Made by a program: the position numbers and the translations under genes. This document shows, in pieces, positions 6,764-16,980 of a stretch of DNA of 64,000 nt. Under the pieces are notes generated by a model. That model worked only from the letters and a program-made list of their open reading frames with translations. It was not told where the DNA came from and searched no databases. Positions within the stretch are counted from its first letter, which is position 1; the number at the start of each line of letters is the position of its first letter. The stretch comes from an uncultured Clostridia bacterium. Lineage in GTDB: Bacteria; Bacillota; Clostridia; Christensenellales; UBA1242. The stretch lies in NCBI GenBank assembly GCA_934754355.1, contig CAKVID010000006.1:2004-66003 (forward strand), in the 5' to 3' direction.

Positions 6764-7402
6764 TTATTTTATCTCCGTTTTATATTTTTTTGCATACTCA
6801 GTTTTAACTGTTTCTCTAACTCTTCCTATAACAAAATCAAATGGATTTGTGTCTATGGTGATAGTTGTGCCTGCGCAAATGTAACTGTCATCGGCAATAT
6901 TTACAGGGGCAACTACATTTACATTGCTTCCGATAAAACAATTGTTGCCAACTTTTGACCTTGATTTGCTTTTGCCGTTGTAATTAACAAATATTGCACC
7001 GCAACCAATGTTACAATCTTTGCCAATGTCTGCATCTCCTATGTATGCTAGATGTGAAGCCTTGCTTCCATCTCCAATATTTGAATTCTTAATTTCTACA
7101 AAGTTGCCAATTTTGCAATTGCTTCCAATAGTGCTATTTGGCCTAAGTCTAGAGAATGGACCAATGCTAGTTTTTTCTGCGATTGTACTGGCTTCTATGT
7201 AACTATGGTCAATTGTGCAATCATTAGATACTCTGCAATCAACTATGTAATTATTAGGCATAAGTACAACATTGTCTCCAATTACTGTATTACCCTTAAT
7301 AATGTTATTTGGGTGAATAATTACATTTTTTCCAAATTGAACTGTATCATCTATGAATACAGTGTTTTCGCCAATTATTGTTGGCTGATTTTCTTCTTTC
7401 AT
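6764..7402 (-). CDS. Left-handed beta-helix acetyltransferase equivalent to the C-terminal (GlcN-1-P acetyltransferase) half of GlmU only
   Basis: 'NFVEIKNSNIGDGSKASHLAYIGDADIG..CNIG.G.I..NY.G..K....VG...FIGSN..VVAPV.I' matches the GlmU C-terminal domain. I place the start at the ATG at 7402, with AAAAAGGAG 8 nt upstream. There is no uridylyltransferase domain, because in-frame stops lie upstream of 7462. Confidence 0.8.
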   Translation of the reverse strand: MKEENQPTIIGENTVFIDDTVQFGKNVIIHPNNIIKGNTVIGDNVVLMPNNYIVDCRVSNDCTIDHSYIEASTIAEKTSIGPFSRLRPNSTIGSNCKIGNFVEIKNSNIGDGSKASHLAYIGDADIGKDCNIGCGAIFVNYNGKSKSRSKVGNNCFIGSNVNVVAPVNIADDSYICAGTTITIDTNPFDFVIGRVRETVKTEYAKKYKTEIK

Positions 7403-7900
7403 ATTTATAAACTCCTTTTTAGTTGCAATAATTATTATATATTTAACCATTATAAAAAGCAAATATAATGTATGAAAATTTCAAAATATTGTACCTGTTT
7501 TTAATAGTTTTTTAGTGATTTTGTATCTGTTTTACGAAATAAAGCCGTTTTTTATAAATTCATAATTTTAAAAAGTGATACCTCTTTTGTAAATATTTTA
7601 TGGTATTATTTTCCAAAATGTGTGTGTTTTGAAAAAATATTACATAATAACTTAATTTATTTGTTGTGTGGTTATTCTCTTTATAATATTCTGGATTTTT
7701 CTTATATTGTGACTGCTATTTGCAATAAAAAGAATATAAAATAAATTCGATTAAAGTTACACCATAAGATTAATTGGGTCTTGTCTTTGATTAACGATGT
7801 GTAACTCATGTCTTAAATTTAATAAATTAAAATTGTATTTTAGATTGATTGATTAAAAATTTAAGAGTGGTATTTGTAGATATTAATTGCTTGTGATAAT

Positions 7901-7950
7901 AAAAAAGACAAGATTAGAAATTAAAACTGTGTCTTAAAATCTATCTTGTC
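7901..7950 (-). terminator. Rho-independent terminator after the 142-aa gene
   Basis: On the minus strand GACAAGAT...ATCTTGTC (7943-7950 / 7907-7914) is followed by TTTTTT. Confidence 0.7.
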
Positions 7951-7954
7951 GTAT

Positions 7955-8383
7955 TTACATATTTTTTTGATTGTCAAGCAATTCTTGTAATTGTTCTATT
8001 GGTAGTGGTTGGTCTCTGAATTTATCTGGAACAGTATTTACAAGCCAACTTGGGTCAAACTTTGAAATAGGTATAGCATACTCAACTTGATTAGTTGTAT
8101 CTGTATCGTAGTTGTGAGGTTCATAATAACCTATCCCTCTGTGGAAAAGTAATTTTGTTCTGGGGATATCAAATGAACAGAAGTAAAATTCATTATCATA
8201 ATCTCTATATAAAACTCTTATGTCAAGTAATCCCGATAAATCTTTGAAAAAGTGTAAGTAGTGGGACTTACTGTAGCGATGGTTATTGAATGGTGTTCTA
8301 TGAAATTTACTTCCGATATCTTCGCTTTGACCGCTAGTGATTTTATTCAATTCTTCTAAACTTAGATATCTATAAACTAACAT
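7955..8383 (-). CDS. Hypothetical protein, 142 aa; possible small R-S-E type ADP-ribosyltransferase-like toxin
   Basis: The ordered motifs VYRY (aa 3-6), FCSF (about aa 68-71) and NQVEYAIP (about aa 98-105) resemble the aromatic-R / STS / QxE-phi-x-phi-P pattern of C3-like ARTs. This rests on motifs only. Confidence 0.3.
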   Translation of the reverse strand: MLVYRYLSLEELNKITSGQSEDIGSKFHRTPFNNHRYSKSHYLHFFKDLSGLLDIRVLYRDYDNEFYFCSFDIPRTKLLFHRGIGYYEPHNYDTDTTNQVEYAIPISKFDPSWLVNTVPDKFRDQPLPIEQLQELLDNQKNM

Positions 8384-8392
8384 TTTATTTGC

Positions 8393-9127
8393 CTACATAT
8401 TGAAGTCTTCAGGTAGAGAAATTCCAAGTTCTTCGTTGGGATAAGGGGATATTGCTCGAATATCTATATCTCTTTCGTCAATTGCAGACATTATACTACC
8501 ATATAAATCTACAACTGCATCTAGCATTCCATGTGCCAAAGAATAATACTTTAAATCTTGATTGCCTCTGCATTGCTCACGATGTTTGAATGCTGAAAAT
8601 TTGTAATCAAACAATGTGTCAAGTGATTTTTTATCGGCAAATTCTTGTAGAGAATTTCCTTCGCTGACTTTTTTATTTCTTATCTCTAATCTGTCTTTTA
8701 ATAATTTGGGTGCAACATGTTTTATAAAAAATTCGTATAAAGAATATTTGTCTTTAACAATATCTTCAGCGTTGAAATATTGATTTTCTAAATTTTGAGA
8801 TACAAATTCCTCAATAATTCTCTCTGGAAGATTGTTGTACTCATCAATTTGCTGTTCGTTATTGCCTAGAGGCAAATCAATAAAATCTCTATCTTTATTA
8901 GCAAGAGTAATTTTTCCAGAATATATGGCGTCATCTCCTACATATTGTGGCATTCCGGCATACACAAAATTGAAGGCTTCTTTGTAGTCTTTAATTCCGC
9001 AAGTTTTCATTTTTTTATTGAATTCAGTGTCGTAAGATTTCTTATCTATCGGCAAGTATCCATCGGCAATTGCAATTGCCATAATTAATGCGTTTTCGTT
9101 TTGAATATCTAAATCAGACTTTTTCAT
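8393..9127 (-). CDS. Hypothetical protein, about 244 aa, co-operonic with the 142-aa gene (9-nt gap)
   Basis: Long ORF with GGGGTGGGA 3-4 nt upstream of the ATG at 9127. The track's GTG at 9136 is probably too early. I recognised no domain. Confidence 0.6.
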   Translation of the reverse strand: MKKSDLDIQNENALIMAIAIADGYLPIDKKSYDTEFNKKMKTCGIKDYKEAFNFVYAGMPQYVGDDAIYSGKITLANKDRDFIDLPLGNNEQQIDEYNNLPERIIEEFVSQNLENQYFNAEDIVKDKYSLYEFFIKHVAPKLLKDRLEIRNKKVSEGNSLQEFADKKSLDTLFDYKFSAFKHREQCRGNQDLKYYSLAHGMLDAVVDLYGSIMSAIDERDIDIRAISPYPNEELGISLPEDFNM

Positions 9128-9345
9128 ATTTCCCACCCCAAATATTATTTATTATAAATTGTAACATATGAAATTTAAAAATTCAATAGGCTTTGACAAA
9201 ATACATTATTTTACTTTTTGAATTATGATTATAATGCGTCTAATTTATTATTGTGATTAATTATCTTATTAAAATGAATTATTCTATTGACAGTTTGTCT
9301 AAATATGTAGTAAAATGTAGGTAATTTATTCGTGGGGTGGTAGTT

Positions 9346-10305
9346 ATGAATTCTAAATTTCAATCTAATTTGAGAAAATTGGCTCAAAATTATTCTCAAA
9401 AACAAATCGCTATTAAAACGGGTTTTTCTCAATCTAGTATTAATAATTATTTATCTGGTAGTAGTGACCCGTCAATTCAATTTGTAATTGCCCTTAAAGA
9501 TGCTTTTGGAATAAGTGTAGATGACTTCTTGTTTTCAGATTTTCAAGTAGAAGATCAAGTGTCTTATGAGCAGTTCTTGGGTAATTATATTATATATTAT
9601 TACAATAATAGTTCATACAAAGGTGAGGTTCATACCAATATTACAAATACCCTTAATTATGGTGTGCTTAGTGTGTATAGGAAAGATGGCTTTGATGGGG
9701 ATATTAAAGTCTCGGCAACTTTTTTTAAAGATAAGATAAGTGCAGTAAAATTATTGAAATTGCTTAATTCAAGTGAAAATAGTGCTGATGATTTTTTCAA
9801 AAATGCAGAGAATGTGTACGATGGAGAAATTTCTTGCACTGATCAAAGTTTATTTTTTATACTTTCTAACAAAGATAATTTTGATAAGTGTTTTATAATA
9901 CTTAATAATCCTCCAACCAAACAAAAGTACATTGGTGGAGTTGGCACGGTTAATTCTATTGCTAGAGGAAGAGAACATAATCCTTGTGTGCAATTCATTA
10001 TTCTTTCCAAGAAGATAATTGATGTACCAGATGGAGAATTATATAATATCTTGAAATTTGAAGATTATACTGTAAGTCTGGATTATGCAATTAAAGATAC
10101 TATAGATTTATTCAAAAGATTGTATGCAGAAAAAAATGAGTTGTCTATAGAATTGAGTGAAACACAGAAACTAGCAATTGTAAGAAATAAATTAGAATAT
10201 TATTTTAATGATATTTTGAGTGCAAATACTTTCAGATTTGCCAAAGTTTCTAATAAAGAAGATGATGGAATTTATAAACTAATTAAGGAGGGAATTGATG
10301 TCTGA
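9346..10305 (+). CDS. XRE-family helix-turn-helix protein with an uncharacterised C-terminal domain of about 250 aa
   Basis: 'LRKLAQNYSQKQIAIKTGFSQSSINNYLSG...PSIQFVIALKDAFGISVDDFL' is a classic HTH_XRE. It is divergent from the 8393 operon and its end overlaps the next gene by 11 nt. Confidence 0.8.
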   Translation: MNSKFQSNLRKLAQNYSQKQIAIKTGFSQSSINNYLSGSSDPSIQFVIALKDAFGISVDDFLFSDFQVEDQVSYEQFLGNYIIYYYNNSSYKGEVHTNITNTLNYGVLSVYRKDGFDGDIKVSATFFKDKISAVKLLKLLNSSENSADDFFKNAENVYDGEISCTDQSLFFILSNKDNFDKCFIILNNPPTKQKYIGGVGTVNSIARGREHNPCVQFIILSKKIIDVPDGELYNILKFEDYTVSLDYAIKDTIDLFKRLYAEKNELSIELSETQKLAIVRNKLEYYFNDILSANTFRFAKVSNKEDDGIYKLIKEGIDV

Positions 10306-11728
10306 CTTAATTGATGAGAGATTTAATCTAATACTTGATAAAGCAAAACAAAATTATTTGCCTACAGATATAATTAGTAAAGCCTATCAGAAAGCAAGAA
10401 CTCTTCACAAAGAACAATTAAGAAAAGATGGAACTCCATATATTAGTCACCCTGTAGAAGTTGCGTTAATTCTAGCAAAATTAGATTTTGATGAGAATGT
10501 AATTTGCGGAGCATTGCTTCATGATACAATTGAAGATTGTGGATACACTCCTGAACAGATGAAAAAAGATTTCAATAGTGCAATTTTTGAATTGGTAGAT
10601 TGTGTAAGTGCAATTGACAATACAAAGTATGTTTTTGACAAAAACAATATATATGAAGACGAAAACTTTGTAAAATCATCTGCCGAAGAACAAACATTTA
10701 TTAAATTAATAAGTCTAGGCAAAAAGAACCCTTGTGGATTTGCAATAAAATTTGCAGATAGATTACACAATTTAAGAACGATAAATTGTTTCGATTATTC
10801 TAAGCAATTAGAGAAAGTGAGAGAGACGGAGAAATGGGTTATTCCAATTGCTAAGGCATTAAAATCGGAGTACTTCTATAGGGCTATTAAAAATGAATGC
10901 TTTAAGATTGTAAATAAATATAGTGGCAGGCAGTATTTTGAAGCGTATGAGAGTTATCATAATGCAAACAAAAAGACTATTGAGAAATTAAATATTGACT
11001 TGAAAGAAATATTTGCAGGAACGCCAATTACTACAATTAAAATTAAGAATGTTAGAGAGTATAAAGTCTTTGAAGATTTGAAGAGGATTAATAAATTTAT
11101 AGATATATCCCAAGCCTCTCAAGGACAAATTATAAGAGTTACAAATTATAATATATATTTACTTTACAAAGATGTAAGTCATACAACTGCTATTATGGAA
11201 GTTTTGGATAGTTTGTCTAGAACAAAGATGAAAGTTATTGATGCCAAGATTGGTGGATTTACAGATAAGGTGTATTTGCAATTTCAAGATAACTTCTATA
11301 ATAAATTCAATATTTACATAATGAGCGAGAGTGAATATCAGATAACCAAAGTTGGAACTCTTGATGGGCAAAATCTAGATAGAATTGATGAAGATAATAT
11401 TAACAATCTTGAAGAAGAATTAATCAAAATAAAAACTAGGTCTAATGAAGTTAAGTATATTGCAAAGAATAGTACCGTTTTGGATTTTGCATTTAAAATT
11501 CACAAAGATATCGGGTTTGCTTTCAAATACGCAATAATTAATGATGGTAAAACTAAATTTCCACCTTACACCAAAATTAATAATAATGATAAAGTGGAAA
11601 TAATTGTAGATAAAGATATCAATGGTAATTTGATTGTTAATGCTAAATTAAGATGGCTTGCATATGTTAATACCGAACTTGCCAAGAAAATACTTATCAA
11701 ATATTTTGAAGAAAAGTTAGTTCGATGA
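10295..11728 (+). CDS. RelA/SpoT-homologue with intact HD hydrolase domain, degenerate synthetase-like middle region and TGS domain (hydrolase-only RSH)
   Basis: HD motifs present: 'SHPVEVALILA...ALLHDTIEDCG' and 'FADRLHNLRTI'. TGS-like 'STVLDFAFKIHKDIGFAFKYAIINDGK...INNNDKVEI'. The middle region aligns by position with a SYNTH domain but lacks DxxGxR, GYxSxH and E-x-Q-x-R-T (it reads NYNIYLLY, GGFTDKVY and FNIYIMSESEY instead). Confidence 0.7.
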   Translation: MMSDLIDERFNLILDKAKQNYLPTDIISKAYQKARTLHKEQLRKDGTPYISHPVEVALILAKLDFDENVICGALLHDTIEDCGYTPEQMKKDFNSAIFELVDCVSAIDNTKYVFDKNNIYEDENFVKSSAEEQTFIKLISLGKKNPCGFAIKFADRLHNLRTINCFDYSKQLEKVRETEKWVIPIAKALKSEYFYRAIKNECFKIVNKYSGRQYFEAYESYHNANKKTIEKLNIDLKEIFAGTPITTIKIKNVREYKVFEDLKRINKFIDISQASQGQIIRVTNYNIYLLYKDVSHTTAIMEVLDSLSRTKMKVIDAKIGGFTDKVYLQFQDNFYNKFNIYIMSESEYQITKVGTLDGQNLDRIDEDNINNLEEELIKIKTRSNEVKYIAKNSTVLDFAFKIHKDIGFAFKYAIINDGKTKFPPYTKINNNDKVEIIVDKDINGNLIVNAKLRWLAYVNTELAKKILIKYFEEKLVR

Positions 11729-11743
11729 GGAAAGGAGAAAATT

Positions 11744-12229
11744 ATGAATTTAGTAGAAAAAGTAAAAACTTTAGCAAAAGATAATAAAGTATATCTTTAT
11801 TTTGATATGGACGGCACTTGTGTAGAATACAAAAGTGGGGAAATAGATTTGATTAAAGGGAATGCAAAAGATTTCTTCCTAACCAAAAGGCCATTATTTT
11901 CAATTCTTAAAATTATGGAAGATTTGGCAAATACAGAGAATGTAATTGTAGGGATATTATCTAATTGCTATTTTGATGAGCAGAAACAAGACAAAATTAC
12001 TTGGCTACAAAAATATGCACCATTTATTAAAAGAGAAAATATTAACATAATAGTGCTTAATAATGAGATTTACACTCAAGACACTAAGGATTATTTGAAG
12101 CCAAATTTACTTAAAAAATTACATAACGATACAACATATGTATATTTGATAGAAGATAACCATCAAATTTTGAAAGCAACAAGAAAAAGTGGACTAAATG
12201 GCGAACATATAAGCACACTTATTAGTTGA
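11744..12229 (+). CDS. HAD-superfamily phosphatase, NT5C (5'(3')-deoxyribonucleotidase)-like
   Basis: 161 aa with the motif I 'YLYFDMDGTCVEY' (DxDGT). The size and layout fit the small NT5C-type nucleotidases. It lies 15 nt after the RSH gene. Confidence 0.5.
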   Translation: MNLVEKVKTLAKDNKVYLYFDMDGTCVEYKSGEIDLIKGNAKDFFLTKRPLFSILKIMEDLANTENVIVGILSNCYFDEQKQDKITWLQKYAPFIKRENINIIVLNNEIYTQDTKDYLKPNLLKKLHNDTTYVYLIEDNHQILKATRKSGLNGEHISTLIS

Positions 12230-12303
12230 TGATATTAAAAATCAATTCATATTGTTGTTTAATGTGTTATACTAAAAAAAATATTATGACTGCATTAACA
12301 AAC

Positions 12304-12339
12304 AAAAAAATTCCTTAAATTTTATTAAGGAATTTTTTT
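12304..12339. terminator. Bidirectional hairpin terminator
   Basis: aattcctta (12309-12317) pairs with taaggaatt (12326-12334), with an A-run on one side and a T-run on the other. Confidence 0.65.
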
Positions 12340-12468
12340 AATATTAATCGTCTAAGTTTATATTTTCAAATAAAGCACTACTATCTAGGATATATCCTTG
12401 ATTTGAAATGGTGTAAAAAGACGAGTTTAAAAATATGTTTATTTTTAGAATATGATGTTAAGACTTTA

Positions 12469-13377
12469 TTATTGTTCAAGCAAAGACATAAGCGCATTTT
12501 TTTCATCTTGGTCTATTTTTATATTATTTGCTATAAAATCTTGAATAGCACAGCCGACAGCTAAATCTTTATTAAAGTATTGTTTATACACATTTATATC
12601 ATAAAAATCGTCTTGAGATTTTCTTTGCTTTGTAAAAAATTCTAGTATTTTTCTTAAGACATAGAAATCTAGGTCGGGGTTATCCGTAAATAGCATTTCA
12701 TATATGAGCGAATTTATTTTTGTATAATTCCATTTCTTAATAAAATATTGCATTGTTTGATTTTCATAATCATCAACTGCGACTAGGCTTTGGCTACTAT
12801 TGTCTATAAAACATTTTTTGCCATTCATATCATAAAACATATCGTCATTTTCATTGATTTTGTAGTTGCCAAAGTCAATGAGATAAATTCCACCATCATA
12901 TACTATATTAGATTTTGTTAAATCTAATAGTCTTATACCTGCTTGACTTATTAGTTCAACATCATTTGCAAGAATGGATAATTCTTCAATAAAATGAGAC
13001 ATGGGGTCGTTTAATACATTTTTTGCATTGGATATGTATTTCATTGTAAACCCAACAAGTTTATCGTCTTGAAATAATTTTTGTTTAGGCATAAGAATTC
13101 TAGAAGTTTTCAGTGAAGCAAGATAATCTAATTCATCTGCTGTTTTATGTGTAAATCTGTAATTATCTCTAAAGATTTTATATGTTAGATTGTCATCGTG
13201 ATAAACAAGCACTTCTGAACCGTCAGAACTTAATAAATTTAAAGTATCGATATCAATTTTTTGACCGTCATCTGTAACAAGATTGCCTTGTGTTAACACA
13301 TCTTTATTTTCTTCGTTTTGCGTCTTGTGCCATTCATTAAATTTTAAAACTTCATTTTTAATGTCATCGGTTAACAT
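12469..13377 (-). CDS. Protein-kinase-like fold protein (ePK-like catalytic loop and DFG)
   Basis: 302 aa. 'LLDLTKSNIVYDGG.IYLIDFGN' corresponds to the (H)RDLKxxN catalytic loop plus DFG. 'LTYKIFR' is a candidate VAIK lysine strand. RBS AAGGAA lies upstream of the ATG at 13377. Confidence 0.55.
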   Translation of the reverse strand: MLTDDIKNEVLKFNEWHKTQNEENKDVLTQGNLVTDDGQKIDIDTLNLLSSDGSEVLVYHDDNLTYKIFRDNYRFTHKTADELDYLASLKTSRILMPKQKLFQDDKLVGFTMKYISNAKNVLNDPMSHFIEELSILANDVELISQAGIRLLDLTKSNIVYDGGIYLIDFGNYKINENDDMFYDMNGKKCFIDNSSQSLVAVDDYENQTMQYFIKKWNYTKINSLIYEMLFTDNPDLDFYVLRKILEFFTKQRKSQDDFYDINVYKQYFNKDLAVGCAIQDFIANNIKIDQDEKNALMSLLEQ

Positions 13378-13411
13378 TTATAATTTCCTTATATTTATTT
13401 GTGCGTACTTA

Positions 13412-13522
13412 GCGGGAGAGTAATCTAAATATCTCGTGTGGAAGCACGAGTACAAAGCGGAACGCGGGTTCGTGAGTGAAACTCACATGAGATGAAATCT
13501 CATAAACTCCCGCAATAAGAAG
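13412..13522 (-). ncRNA. Copy A of a ~107-nt structured repeat (multi-hairpin, closed by GCGGGAG/CTCCCGC); 5' leader of the kinase-like gene
   Basis: Nearly identical to 13843-13949. Hairpins are CTCGTG/CACGAG, GAAC/GTTC, GTGAG/CTCAC and ATGAGAT/ATCTCAT. It lies between the minus-strand promoter (13530-13558) and the start codon at 13377. Strand is assigned from the promoter and gene context. Confidence 0.5.
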
Positions 13523-13529
13523 TATAGTG

Positions 13530-13558
13530 ATTATAGCACGAATTTTTTACACTTGCAA
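13530..13558 (-). promoter_or_regulatory. Sigma-A-type promoter reading toward copy A and the kinase-like gene
   Basis: The minus strand reads TTGCAA (13558-13553), 17 nt, TATAAT (13535-13530). Confidence 0.6.
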
Positions 13559-13804
13559 TATTTATTCTAAAATAAACAAGTGAGACTAATTTTTAATGAT
13601 ATTGGCGTTGCCAATGATATTGACCGAGGGCAATGAAATTACTCACTTCGTTTGTAATGATATAAAATTGAACCTTTACTTTTGTACTAGCAAAAATATC
13701 GTTGCGTAGCAATATCATTCGCATTAGCGAATATCTCTGAAACGTAAGGATCAATTTCATTGTAAACAAAAAGAAAAGCCAATAAGACTTTCCTTCTTGT
13801 TTAC

Positions 13805-13824
13805 TTGGTGGACGTGGCGGGAGT
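13805..13824 (-). repeat. Direct duplicate of the last 20 nt of the tmRNA gene (att-like scar)
   Basis: tggtggacgtggcgggagtt at 13805-13824 is identical to 14004-14023. In RNA sense this is AACTCCCGCCACGTCCACCA, the 3' T-stem plus acceptor plus CCA. Both copies have the same orientation. Confidence 0.85.
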
Positions 13825-13842
13825 TGTCTATTTAGATACTCT

Positions 13843-13949
13843 GGGAGTAATCTAAATATCTCGTGTGGAAGCACGAGTACAAAGCGGAACGCGGGTTCGT
13901 GAGTAAAACTCACATGAGATGAAATCTCATAAACTCCCGCAATAAGAAG
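13843..13949 (-). repeat. Copy B of the ~107-nt structured repeat (an extended form starts at 13818)
   Basis: Differs from copy A by one loop substitution (gtgagtGaaactcac vs gtgagtAaaactcac). It also has an extra TATTTAGAT/ATCTAAATA hairpin between two GGGAG direct repeats. The closing stem can use GCGGGAG at 13818-13824. Confidence 0.7.
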
Positions 13950-13960
13950 AGTGTTGAATT

Positions 13961-13989
13961 AAAAACACAAGGTTAGAAAAACACTTGTG
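13961..13989 (-). terminator. Terminator of ssrA
   Basis: On the minus strand CACAAG...CTTGTG is followed by TTTTT, just 3' of the tmRNA CCA end. Confidence 0.6.
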
Positions 13990-14003: not shown

Positions 14004-14368
14004 TGGTGGACGTGGCGGGAGTTGAACCCGCGTCCATATATCCTGCAAACAACTTTCTACATAATTAGTTGCATTTTATTTAGAGTGGTGGAGAATATAT
14101 ACTTGCAACAAAACTCTATTCTCACCGCACAAAAATTTAGTTACAAAGTTGCCTTTGTGCCAACAAATTTTGCACCGCTATTTAATTTGATGCTTGCTTT
14201 TGACCAGTAGCGAAATCAAGGCAAACACGCTCTACTGCTAAACTTACGCAGCTAAAGCAAGTTCAGATTTACTATCTGCAGTTAAATTTAATTTTGAACC
14301 TATAACGCAGTTCAACCGTTATGCTTTTTTGTTCACACTAGAGTATATGTCGAAACCAATACACGCCC
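14004..14368 (-). ncRNA. ssrA: tmRNA (transfer-messenger RNA)
   Basis: The 5' GGGCGUG pairs with the 3' CACGUCC-ACCA, including G3-U. The 5' region has GGUUUCGACA. The T-arm is GCGGGUUCAACUCCCGC. An internal tag frame at 14279-14244 reads GCA...GCG TAA = ADSKSELALAA*. It lies immediately downstream of smpB. Confidence 0.93.
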
Positions 14369-14374
14369 ATAAAA

Positions 14375-14821
14375 TTATCTGTACTTTTTTAGTTCTCGCT
14401 CGGTTTCTCTCTTGATATCTTTCTCTGCCAATGTCTTCTTTTTGTCGTATAAATGTTTGCCTTTGGCAAGAGCAATTTCAATTTTTATTAGGTTGTCTTT
14501 AAGATATATCTTAAGAGGAACACAGGTAAAGCCTTTTTCTTGGGTTTTACTAATTAATTTGGCAATTTCGCTAGAGTTAAGAAGCAATTTTCTACTTCTT
14601 TTCTCATCTAATTTGTCTATAGTTGCATCTTTGTAATTAGAGATATGCATATTCTTTATAAATGCTTCATTGTGGCTAAATGTGATGAAACTATCTTTGA
14701 GATTAGTATGTCCAAGTCTTATAGACTTAACTTCACTTCCTGCAAGTACAATTCCTGCTTCAAAAGTAGATATGATGAAATAATCAAAATAGGCTTTCTT
14801 GTTGGTAGCAATAATTTTCAT
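14375..14821 (-). CDS. smpB: SsrA-binding protein
   Basis: 'KIIATNKKAYFDYFI...GSEVKS.R' is the typical SmpB N-terminus. The start is at 14821, with AAAGGAG 7 nt upstream. Confidence 0.93.
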   Translation of the reverse strand: MKIIATNKKAYFDYFIISTFEAGIVLAGSEVKSIRLGHTNLKDSFITFSHNEAFIKNMHISNYKDATIDKLDEKRSRKLLLNSSEIAKLISKTQEKGFTCVPLKIYLKDNLIKIEIALAKGKHLYDKKKTLAEKDIKRETERELKKYR

Positions 14822-15192
14822 TTTTATCTCCTTTATTTTGCAGTAATTAGATTTTAACACACTTGATGATTTTTTTCAATGAGATTGATGATTTTTTATT
14901 AAAATTAATAAAGATTTGTGTAAAAATAATTAACTTTTTTTGAAATAGGTATTGAAAAATAATGCAAAATAGTATAAACTAATATTGCTTTTGACGCATA
15001 TTTTGCAAAAAAATGTGAATTTTATTCCAAAAAGTATTCAAATGTTTTGCAAAATATTGTATAATATATATAATCTAAAATATAGATGAAATTCAATTTT
15101 AGATTGTACATGCTAAAATTTTGATATTATAGTCAGACTACATGGTGGGTAGTTTGCAAAATTAAAATTAGTTTGAAAGTGAGGGGTATTTT

Positions 15193-16980
15193 ATGGGAGC
15201 AGTTATTGGTATTATTTTGGATATTTTGGCAATTCTAGCAATAATAGTATTTGGATCTTTTATTGTTGTTCTTATTGCTGATTTAATTCTATGTATGTTT
15301 GATAATCACGAGGGAATTATTTTCAATAGAAAGAAGAAATCTTCTACAGAAGAAAGTATTGAAGAAACTAGTACAACTGTTAAGAAAGATGATATTGTAG
15401 TATATTCTAACCAATCCAATCCAAATGGAACTATTGAGACAAAAACAAAGACTGAGAAAGTTGACGGCGAAGTTGTAAGTGAAATAGACTTTGATAAAGC
15501 AGTTGAAGAACAACAAGCATTGAATAGAAAGAGAAATATGGAGAATGCTCCTATTGTTAATGAAGAAGAGCAAAAACCAGTTCAAAGACCAACTCCAAAG
15601 CCAGAACCAAAACCAAAGAAAGAAGACGATGGATTTTGGGATATTGACGAAGACCAAGACTTCAAAGATTTGCTTGATGAAGTAATCAAAGAGGCTAAGG
15701 GTAGTGACAAAAAACAAAAAGAAGTTGTTGTTGAAGAGAAGAAAGAAAGCGAAGAAGACAAATTAGCAAAAGAACAACAAAAGAAAGAACTAGAAGAACT
15801 AAAACAACTAAAAGAGCAACAACAAAAAGAACTTGAAGAATTCAAACAAATGAAAGAAGACTTTGCAAGAGAGAAAGAAGAACAACTTGCTCTTTACAAA
15901 GACAATCTAGACAAACTAAAAGCAGAAGAACTAGATAAATTAAAACAAGAAATTGTTGCTGAACAAGAGAAATTACAACAAGAAAGAGAAAAACTAGAAA
16001 ATAAACAAGAAGAATTAGAAGAAAAGAAAAATTCTGAAACTGTAGGCACTGAAAGAGAAGAGATTGTTAAAGAAACAATTATAAGAGACGAAGAAGAAAT
16101 CAACAAATTGAAATTCAAAAACTTAGTTAGAATGAATAATCGTCTAAGCAGAATTATTAGAGATACAGAGAAATTACAAGACCAAAAGCAAAAAGAATTG
16201 GTTAAGAAAGAATTAGAAAAGAAAAAATTACTAGCCGAAGAACAAGAAGAGAAACTTAGAGAACAAGAAAGAAGAATTGAAATTCAGAGACAAAACCAAG
16301 AAAGACTTGCAAAACAAGCCGAAGCACTAAGAAGAAGAAATGAAATCAATAGAAAATTACAAGAAGTTAGCAAGAAGGCTGGTAAGTATAAATTAGATAA
16401 TACTAAGGTTAAAGTAGTCAAAGAAACAGATCACAATAATCATCATGTAGTTGAAGAAGTTGTTACAACTGTTGAAGAGACTATTCCGGGAACGGATACA
16501 GTAATTAAGACGGTAGAGAAAGAACCTATCAAAGCTGCCCCAACTCCAATTTTTGAGAAAGCATATTATGAGCAAAAATTAGTTGAACTAGATAATGAAT
16601 TGAAAGAAGCAGAGAAAGAACTTAGAGTTAATAAATCTGAATATATTCCACTAACTAGAATTCATAAAGCATATGCTAGAGACAGTGAAAAATTGCGTAA
16701 GAAAGAAATCCAAGTAGCAAAACAGAAAGTTGCTTTGTATGGTGTTAATTCCAAAAATGTTGACCCAGCAAAGAAAGCAAAACTAGATGAAAATTTGGCA
16801 TCACTTTCTGAACTAAAAGATAGTGTAGAGCATTGTGAAGAAGTTATCAGAAAGAATAAAGATAGATATCCTGTTCTAGAGAAAAACAATAAACTTCTAA
16901 ATAAACAAGTTGATAGAATTAATGATGATATCAAGACTTGTGAGAAAGCAATCTCTTATTACAATAAGAAACAAAAATAA
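15193..16980 (+). CDS. Membrane-anchored, highly charged (E/K-rich) coiled-coil protein
   Basis: 595 aa with an N-terminal TM helix (AVIGIILDILAILAIIVFGSFIVVLIADLIL) followed by long EEK/KEL heptad-like low-complexity sequence. RBS GTGAGGGG. Confidence 0.7.
   Translation: MGAVIGIILDILAILAIIVFGSFIVVLIADLILCMFDNHEGIIFNRKKKSSTEESIEETSTTVKKDDIVVYSNQSNPNGTIETKTKTEKVDGEVVSEIDFDKAVEEQQALNRKRNMENAPIVNEEEQKPVQRPTPKPEPKPKKEDDGFWDIDEDQDFKDLLDEVIKEAKGSDKKQKEVVVEEKKESEEDKLAKEQQKKELEELKQLKEQQQKELEEFKQMKEDFAREKEEQLALYKDNLDKLKAEELDKLKQEIVAEQEKLQQEREKLENKQEELEEKKNSETVGTEREEIVKETIIRDEEEINKLKFKNLVRMNNRLSRIIRDTEKLQDQKQKELVKKELEKKKLLAEEQEEKLREQERRIEIQRQNQERLAKQAEALRRRNEINRKLQEVSKKAGKYKLDNTKVKVVKETDHNNHHVVEEVVTTVEETIPGTDTVIKTVEKEPIKAAPTPIFEKAYYEQKLVELDNELKEAEKELRVNKSEYIPLTRIHKAYARDSEKLRKKEIQVAKQKVALYGVNSKNVDPAKKAKLDENLASLSELKDSVEHCEEVIRKNKDRYPVLEKNNKLLNKQVDRINDDIKTCEKAISYYNKKQK

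Follow-up and report, generated by a model that had tools for sequence, protein, structure and literature searches.

When a run of unfamiliar genes stops at the 3′ end of a transfer-messenger RNA (tmRNA) gene, and a copy of that 3′ end lies beside it, should the run be read as a single integrated island? The question is raised by positions 7463–13950 of a 64,000-nucleotide (nt) stretch, here called the window, of the genome of an uncultured Clostridia bacterium (GenBank assembly GCA_934754355.1, contig CAKVID010000006.1). A first-pass annotation had seen in this block one fixed or decayed island, and a candidate for an undescribed multi-gene system. Open reading frame (ORF) calling and family scans confirm the six genes it listed: two orphans, hyp142 and hyp247; XRE322, a helix-turn-helix (HTH) protein; RSH477, with hydrolase and TGS domains; NT161, a small phosphatase-like protein; and kin302, an atypical kinase-like protein. 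The flanks are core genes, as described, with glmS, glmM and an LbH protein resembling the C-terminal part of GlmU on one side and the tmRNA gene ssrA and smpB on the other. At least four distinct histories can be told apart among these six genes, at odds with one island, and the genes do not co-vary in presence, at odds with one system. We consider it likely that the interval is a zone of plasticity next to the ssrA 3′ end, in which modules with histories of their own form a mosaic, rather than a single island or system.

The window's genome is low in GC (~31%). Its closest relatives are metagenome-assembled genomes of uncultured gut Clostridia, with SmpB identity of at most 81% in the species-representative genome set, and homologues of the block proteins carry the label “Christensenellales” or “Clostridia” in their source records. 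The relatives compared are loci L001–L006, L016, L017, L020–L025 and L029–L031, where L020 is a sister species, L029 and L030 belong to the window's own species and L031 is a third species. L026–L028 are loci of a kin302 homologue, and L032–L057 are IMG/VR contigs. Proteins were scanned against Pfam, NCBIfam, PHROG and PADLOC-DB 2.0, and RNAs with Rfam and ARAGORN.

Gene content beside ssrA

Loci around smpB–ssrA in the relatives show that the ancestral neighbour of ssrA was a convergent pgk-tpi-gpmI-secG-rnr cluster. In L004 the site is empty: the order is tmRNA, terminator, rnr, with only the terminator and ~100 bp between ssrA and rnr. In L001 and L002, 6.4–7.7 kb separate tmRNA from rnr, and hold GNAT acetyltransferases, a P-loop kinase and a membrane protein of YgjV type; beyond these come RSH, XRE and a small ORF, with a hyp247 homologue last. 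The gene set beside ssrA in L003 differs again. Because L004 is empty and the cargo differs among L001–L003, the site next to ssrA is a hot spot. Synteny between the window and its relatives breaks in a 492-bp AT-rich intergenic stretch (7463–7954), where the neighbour is rnr in L001/L002 and the glm operon in the window; the window contains neither rnr nor secG. The window's gene order is the same in L020 and L029.

The view of the interval as accessory therefore holds for the zone, which is variable and rich in accessory genes, but not for all of its contents, since the XRE–RSH pair is lineage-wide. Likewise, comparison of the ssrA interval across relatives, proposed as a check on the island, finds the block variably present, but its genes do not behave as one unit. 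A second proposed check, on composition, marks the block as native: the GC and GC3 of its genes lie within ~1.5 standard deviations of the window's 54 genes.

A cassette exchanged between species

One module within the block is a recently exchanged tract at 11660–13833, delimited by sliding identity, edge alignments and per-segment identities. The tract is 95–99.4% identical to the sister species L020 versus 78–84% in core genes, with nucleotide identities of 99.4% for NT161, 96.7% for kin302 and 95.4% for copy A of a structured element described below; the conspecific L029 is 96.5–99.5% identical to the window throughout. Besides these three features, the tract holds a cluster of hairpins and a 21-nt repeat of the tmRNA 3′ end. 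Its left edge (~11,660) falls within the 3′-terminal 70 nt of the RSH gene and its right edge (~13,833) just beyond the repeat. The left crossover would be of the kind seen in homologous recombination, with the conserved RSH 3′ end probably serving as the anchor for exchange. In L020 the repeat fits the window's tmRNA, with two mismatches to L020's own tmRNA, which suggests a window-like lineage as the donor. In essence, a 2.2-kb cassette comprising NT161, kin302, one copy of the structured element and att remnants has recently moved between two species, a clean instance of inter-species transfer of a kinase/phosphatase cassette in uncultured gut Clostridia. NT161 accompanies kin302 in L020, L029, L030 and L031, and in L031 the order is tmRNA, element, kin302, NT161, with no RSH gene behind.

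The transfer bears on a conservative reading, in which the block is ordinary core chromosome of the genus and its repeats are an immobile artefact of local duplication. The lineage-wide distribution of XRE–RSH, the native composition and the gene order common to the window, L020 and L029 would all fit that reading, but a 2.2-kb tract 95–99% identical between species that otherwise differ as much as these already contradicts it. So do the empty site in L004, the other cargo in L001–L003, and the presence/absence polymorphism of hyp142 and of a 427-bp unit beside ssrA. We find this reading barely credible.

NT161 (11744–12229, + strand) is a putative small phosphatase of HAD type, 161 amino acids long and NT5C-like. 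The HAD motif DxDxT is present as DMDGT; the Pfam NT5C score is 23.9 bits, against a cut-off of 24.8, and the PHROG matches are to polynucleotide kinase/phosphatase and deoxyribonucleotidase families. Between NT161 and the convergent kin302, an inverted-repeat search finds a perfect 15-bp inverted repeat (12304–12339), which we read as a putative bidirectional terminator. The two genes are co-transferred cargo rather than an operon.

kin302 (12469–13377, − strand) is a putative atypical small kinase of the Bud32/RIO/PolyVal type, recognized through the NCBIfam Bud32 domain (E=1.7e-5) and composed of an N-terminal extension, a kinase core and a C-terminal helical part. The motifs DLTKSN and DFG are readable in its sequence. 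A seven-member alignment keeps D152, K155, N157, D168-F169-G170 and the β3 lysine K67 invariant, the residues generically expected of a kinase fold. The β3 lysine, the D-x4-N loop (DLTKSN, compared with HGDLTTSN in Bud32) and DFG are shared with Bud32/RIO and with the “Kinase-PolyVal” domain, which forms part of the polyvalent proteins of mobile elements. Unlike these families, kin302 has an extra 45 N-terminal residues and a C-terminal helical region of ~120 residues, and it falls far below their cut-offs (for instance, 24.4 bits for Bud32, against an equivalog cut-off of 125). Nor does it have a Kae1 partner as neighbour; NT161 and the structured element adjoin it instead. The best match in the PDB is the Bud32 part of Kae1-Bud32, at E=0.027. 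An AlphaFold2 (AF2) model was discarded as unusable (predicted local distance difference test score, pLDDT, of 40) and kept out of the fold search.

kin302 is restricted to a few gut Clostridia and to mobile settings. Close homologues form only six clusters, while a profile search gathers 239 representatives, mostly unannotated proteins of 220 amino acids. No kin302 relative was found in the IMG/VR scan, and BLAST searches of the cassette and of kin302 against phage and plasmid collections gave no match.

A 63%-identical homologue (L026 6299–7120; also L027 and L028) stands directly after a 104-amino-acid ORF (L026 5917–6231). In L026 that ORF begins with the catalytic motif from the C-terminus of a tyrosine recombinase (LLGHRDVKTTANIYSH), which makes the ORF a truncated integrase remnant. 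Both genes are part of an integrated element, in a stretch of mobile-element genes encoding Fic, HTH_26, a SNIPE/T5orf172 nuclease, Rep and a large serine recombinase, and a tRNA-Lys gene stands near the serine-recombinase end of this stretch.

A conserved XRE–RSH operon

XRE322 and RSH477 have a different history. XRE322 (9337–10305, + strand) begins with an HTH_3 domain (PF01381, E=1e-10); its true start is probably 9346, giving a form of 319 amino acids, and its 426 homologues are ~320 residues long. An AF2 model has a mean pLDDT of 64, reaching ~75–87 over most of residues 82–209, and predicts an HTH and a β-rich middle domain; the C-terminal part is modelled poorly. Foldseek returned only HTH matches for this model, together with weak, non-significant similarity to lipocalin/LolA-like folds (E ~0.01).

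RSH477 (10295–11728, + strand), whose start overlaps the XRE stop by 11 nt, consists of an HD hydrolase domain and a TGS domain (Pfam HD_4, E=6e-22; TGS, E=6e-12). Pfam detects no RelA_SpoT synthetase domain at E<=0.01, synthetase motifs are missing from the middle region, and the score against the NCBIfam spoT_relA profile is 169.5 bits, with a cut-off of 499. The TGS domain occupies residues 377–437 and the protein stops at 477, leaving no ACT/RRM region. Aligned to the HD domains of Rel/RelA structures in the PDB, the HDTIED motif is intact, and the HD catalytic motifs are invariant across 20 family members. An RSH classification (PMC3153485) describes long RSH proteins (Rel/SpoT) as including monofunctional hydrolases with an inactive synthetase domain. 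RSH477 resembles these in its HD domain with intact HDxxED, followed by a middle region of synthetase size and then TGS. It differs in having no detectable synthetase and no helical, zinc-finger or ACT/RRM regions, and in being always translationally coupled to a 320-residue XRE-HTH protein; neither this architecture nor this partner was found in the searched passages of that 2011 survey (PMC3153485). Nor is RSH477 of the SAH/toxSAS-antitoxin type, being 477 residues long with a TGS domain and having no adjoining synthetase gene in the window or in L020–L025.

RSH477 would thus be a Rel derivative with an intact (p)ppGpp-type HD site and a TGS domain, whose synthetase region is dead and whose C-terminal regulatory domains have been lost. 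Judged from these motifs, it is most likely a dedicated alarmone pyrophosphohydrolase. XRE322 probably autoregulates the operon, and may bind RSH477 or a small ligand through its β-rich domain.

More than 120 clusters homologous to RSH477, at 59–91% identity, contain proteins of ~475 residues, each with HD_4 and TGS. In L021, L023 and L025 the XRE and RSH genes again stand side by side, overlapping by the same short stretch, and no tmRNA gene lies anywhere near them. Their neighbours there are tRNA synthetases, ParAB, MetK, GAPDH, U32 peptidase or PolA, and the gene following the pair differs each time. We conclude that XRE322–RSH477 is an old, vertically inherited and translationally coupled operon, found lineage-wide in Christensenellales-like gut Clostridia; it is not island cargo, because it is conserved across the lineage in housekeeping contexts away from ssrA. 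A lineage-wide, unstudied pairing of an HTH protein with a hydrolase-only, TGS-bearing Rel derivative bears on (p)ppGpp control in gut anaerobes with small genomes.

An SduA_C (Shedu-type) protein is encoded ~5 kb downstream of the XRE–RSH pair in L021 (16740–17777) and is unlinked to the pair elsewhere.

These distributions largely refute the reading of the whole 7.5–13.9-kb block as one fixed or decayed tmRNA island of uncharacterized conflict or defence modules. The position beside ssrA, the att-like repeat and the several unannotated genes speak for it, as does the absence of the block at the homologous site in L004; RSH hydrolases, nucleotidases and kinases are, moreover, gene types found in conflict systems. 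Against it stand the independent presence and absence of the six genes, the housekeeping contexts of XRE–RSH off ssrA, and a perfect repeat that brackets 177 bp only. No distal att copy was found in 7000–13400 beyond chance, as the first-pass annotation had also noted. Its suggestion of a defence-system search yielded little: PADLOC gives only generic and weak HTH matches for XRE322 and none for the other five proteins, and the PHROG and NCBIfam scans of the six likewise point to no known system. With the native composition and the lack of phage or plasmid matches added, a single island is very improbable. Odd genes beside ssrA, even with an att-like repeat, need not form one island or one defence system.

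Orphan genes

A third module comprises hyp247 and hyp142, fast-evolving or species-specific orphans. hyp247 (8393–9136, − strand), divergent from the XRE gene, has no match in the Pfam, NCBIfam, PHROG, PADLOC or structure scans. At the same relative position, its amino acid identity is 68% in L020 and 40–42% in L001/L002, and comparison of these sequences marks it as a fast-evolving neighbour of XRE. hyp142 (7955–8383, − strand) matches no family in the Pfam, NCBIfam, PHROG or PADLOC scans and is confined to the window's species, having been found only in the conspecific L029 and being absent from L020. A match of hyp142 to a “Dandelion” entry in the PDB (E=0.25–0.58) was treated as chance.

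In L029, hyp247 is split by a frameshift (7870–8609), with neighbours 99% identical to those in the window; hyp247 is therefore dispensable.

Repeats of the tmRNA 3′ end

What, then, are the repeats beside ssrA? The tmRNA gene (14004–14368, − strand; tag ADSKSELALAA) is recognized by ARAGORN and by Rfam RF00023 at 136.8 bits. Its duplicated 3′ end, first noted as 20 nt, is an exact 21-nt match running from T-loop to CCA, at 13806–13826 versus 14004–14024, where none is expected by chance; the block of identity stops exactly at CCA. A degenerate third copy (tgtgcgtacttagcgggag; 13400–13418) lies directly upstream of kin302. It is too diverged for ungapped search and was recognized through intermediates in L016, L029 and L020. 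In addition, a 105-nt repeat had been overlooked; its two copies, 13418–13522 and 13845–13949, are 99% identical and form most of the structured element, copies A and B.

Reading away from ssrA, tmRNA core 1 is followed by the ssrA terminator hairpin, element B on the opposite strand, an 18-nt linker and the perfect core 2, and then by a long hairpin, a cluster of hairpins spaced by AATGAWATT, element A, degenerate core 3 and kin302. The cores are separated by 177 bp (perfect copies) and ~390 bp (to the degenerate copy), with no protein gene between them. The same layout of tmRNA, terminator, element and repeat recurs in L002/L017, L003 and L005 and is decayed in L001, L006 and L016, and the conspecific L029 and L030 are without exactly the 427-bp unit. 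An origin by simple tandem duplication was rejected because the spacings differ, with 427 bp for the element and 198 bp for the core.

The intrinsic terminator of ssrA (13966–13989, − strand), read from the sequence as a hairpin and then a T-run on the minus strand, has compensatory variants in L001–L003, L005 and L006. Directly after the displaced tmRNA 3′ end stands the long hairpin (13762–13804), likewise identified in the sequence, kept in L002 and L003 and probably a former ssrA terminator. The hairpin cluster (13578–13762) forms two inverted sets, and L002 and L003 keep it too, behind the displaced tmRNA end; five of the 11 matches to AATGAWATT in the whole 64 kb fall within its 167 bp. 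It gives sub-threshold matches to Rfam RF01706, at 13578–13644 (+) and 13691–13762 (−), with 31.0 and 29.8 bits where the gathering score is 50. RF01706 is the Gut-1 RNA motif, described as “human gut only” and of unknown function (Weinberg et al. 2010, PMC2864571). The cluster resembles Gut-1 in its three short hairpins, its (U)GAAAU-like spacers and its human-gut type of organism; it differs in its scores, in the inverted orientation of its two copies and in the spacer AATGAWATT. It could be an RNA or an array of iterons or arm sites, and the orphan Gut-1 motif may thereby gain a genomic home.

In islands at tRNA and tmRNA genes, the cargo is bounded by the end of the target gene and a displaced fragment of it, as formalized by Islander (PMC4383910), and the ssrA-specific islands of Dehalococcoides carry tandem repeats of the ssrA 3′ end (PMC3146451). 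The window shares with such islands an intact target gene regenerated beside a displaced 3′ fragment, an exact direct repeat from T-loop to CCA, tandem copies in graded decay and gene content on the ssrA side that varies among relatives. Unlike them, its array has no integrase, in keeping with the first-pass annotation: no integrase or excisionase domain occurs in the six block proteins or in the flanking proteins scanned. All six protein genes lie outside the intervals bounded by repeats. Applied to cores with no genes between them, the Islander definition makes the “islands” here gene-less. The att-like scar is thus genuine as a set of att-type footprints, but not as the boundary of an island: only 177 bp separate ssrA from the perfect repeat, which brackets none of the six genes.

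The fourth module would be this array, in which miniature att-bounded units, 198 and ~400 bp long and with no recombinase of their own, would have accreted in tandem. Streptococci harbour cis-mobilizable elements (CIMEs), att-flanked remnants without recombination genes. The units would be CIME-like, moved in trans by a tyrosine integrase whose gene lies elsewhere or has since disappeared, with the structured element as a conserved arm beside the core of each. As in CIMEs, att-type repeats flank DNA without integrase or excisionase, and arrays arise by accretion at one site; unlike CIMEs, the units are ten-fold smaller and carry a conserved folded element mimicking the T-arm of the target, and their mobilization is putative.

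Whether the repeat and element are such miniature integrase-less integrative units stands, on sequence comparison, about in balance. Their favour comes from repeats that are either perfect or decayed, from the T-loop-to-CCA block, from the tandem and polymorphic arrangement, from absence in L004 and from the mobile links of the kin302 homologue. Several points weigh the other way. The repeats cannot be linked to any recombinase, as no integrase was found among the genes scanned or Pfam-labelled at about a dozen related loci. To our knowledge, 198 and ~400 bp are far below the size of any integrative element. Homologous recombination between the 105-nt repeats can by itself explain the 427-bp polymorphism, and the coincidence of the right edge of the exchanged tract with an att copy may be chance. 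The relatives are metagenome assemblies throughout, and L016, at 1.3x coverage, may be chimeric. Finally, compensatory changes, the pattern of G-U pairs and GNRA loops in the element, described below, point to selection on a folded single strand, which a simple protein-binding DNA arm does not explain.

In IMG/VR, the 21-nt core occurs in 26 contigs, mostly in phage-encoded tmRNA genes with other tags, and in none together with the element. Several phage tmRNA genes sharing the exact 21-nt 3′ end sit inside large phage tRNA arrays.

A structured element that tracks the tmRNA

The element itself is ~118 nt long, present in two copies on the strand opposite ssrA and conserved in more than eight species. 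Copy A (13411–13528, + strand) scores 135.5 bits against a covariance model built from ten element copies and copy B (13838–13955, + strand) 134.4 bits, with fold z-scores of −4.8 for copy A and −6.2 for 13578–13960, which includes copy B. The model finds the element only just 3′ of ssrA and always on the opposite strand, including the diverged copies of L005 and L006. The equally close relative L004 has no element. An Rfam E-value scan gave nothing for the 105-nt element, IMG/VR holds no match to the element core, and a metagenome scan returned only four matches to it, two of which (L018 and L019) are chance 19–22-mers.

In the more distant relative L006 (10812–12189), two tandem units of tmRNA 3′ end, terminator and element are followed by a gene of the 2′-5′ RNA ligase superfamily (2H phosphoesterase) and then by rnr.

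Copy B folds into two parts, hairpin P1 and a three-way junction, and the stem that closes the junction is a copy of the tmRNA T-stem. The ends of this closing stem and loop read GGAACGCGGGTTC[38 nt]AACTCCCGC, which amounts to the tmRNA T-arm GGACGCGGGTTCAACTCCCGCC interrupted by two hairpins. With the linker (13827–13844) and the duplicate, copy B can form further helices, Px and P0. In P0 the reverse complement of the repeat pairs with the 3′ strand of the element over 8–9 bp, as an alternative to the internal stem P2; P0 is kept in the window, L005, L002 and L003. The ~140-nt unit is thus a reverse complement of the tmRNA 3′ end, then a folded domain closed by a T-arm split by two hairpins.

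Covariation accompanies the fold. In an alignment fitted to the model, 98.1% of pairing cells can pair, versus 85.9% in shuffles (0/500) and 28–55% in slid controls, with compensatory double changes in 12 of the 22 base pairs. Four G-U cells fit the strand opposite ssrA and none the ssrA strand, and the tetraloops are GNRA on the opposite strand. The tmRNA T-stem of L005 is GCGAG/CUCGC, not GCGGG/CCCGC, and its repeat and both strands of its element stem share the change, a concerted three-way substitution. Likewise, the CAAC/CAAT and CAC/CGT/CAT variants follow each locus's own tmRNA in the window, L002 and L003. Between copy A and the hairpin cluster is a divergent promoter-like pair (13530–13573; consensus matches only, 10/12 each), one directed at kin302 through copy A and the other at the hairpin cluster and element B.

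Such observations raise a second reading of the repeat and element, as a putative antisense RNA gene convergent with ssrA rather than an integration scar. Its predicted transcript would start near 13,580 and carry 21 nt in perfect complementarity to the mature tmRNA 3′ end from T-loop to CCA, then the folded domain, whose T-arm-like strand would mask the complementary segment (P0) or pair internally (P2); such an RNA could sequester or sense the acceptor end of the tmRNA. Compensatory pairs, strand-specific G-U cells and GNRA loops, the concerted change in L005, the retention of P0, the promoter-like site at 13546–13573 and the strong fold (the z-score of −6.2) all argue for it. The promoter match is, however, at consensus level and not clearly conserved, and the covariation alignment is itself fitted to the model. 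The repeat tends to be either perfect or heavily decayed (L001, L006, L016 and copy A), as young and old integrations would be. The lack of an element in L004 is a further difficulty, as are the two positions at which L020's repeat, having arrived with the transferred tract, departs from its own tmRNA. We rate an antisense RNA as rather unlikely. The two readings are not mutually exclusive: miniature integrative units and an antisense RNA can both hold.

The worthwhile leads at this locus are the tmRNA-tracking element and the XRE–RSH operon; an undescribed multi-gene system is not supported. We entertain, as a tentative joint proposal from sequence comparison, that the ~140-nt element co-evolving with tmRNA would represent a new functional class of nucleic acid and that XRE–RSH(HD-TGS) would be a new arrangement for alarmone hydrolysis across the order. 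The element may act in trans as an antisense RNA, masking or sensing the acceptor/T-arm end of tmRNA through a P0/P2 switch. Alternatively, by analogy with integron attC or CTX-phage sites, it may be a folded single-stranded attP that lets tiny recombinase-less units use ssrA. An element absent from Rfam that follows the tmRNA T-arm offers a link either to regulation of trans-translation or to the use of ssrA by minimal elements.

Flanking genes

On the glm side, the LbH acetyltransferase (6764–7462, − strand; NCBIfam GlmU equivalog and Pfam Hexapep) heads an LbH-glmM-glmS operon and matches only the C-terminal half of GlmU, aligning to positions 244–447 of the 447-position NCBIfam profile. 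The uridyltransferase half must have its gene elsewhere or have been replaced. Truncation of glmU by an island was rejected: L020 and L029 keep the LbH-only form, at 212–213 amino acids, and upstream there is no remnant of an ORF. C-terminal-only “glmU” genes of 212–232 amino acids are kept in three genomes (window 6764–7462, − strand; L020 6779–7420; L029 9603–10241).

On the other side, smpB (14375–14860, − strand; Pfam SmpB, E=9e-57) follows the tmRNA gene. It is adjoined by a 595-amino-acid ORF (15193–16980, + strand) with no Pfam match recorded for its L020 and L029 homologues. The AT skew of this ORF reaches 0.50, an extreme excess of A over T, and its identity is 87% in L020, 68–70% in L001–L004 and ~52–54% in L005–L007.

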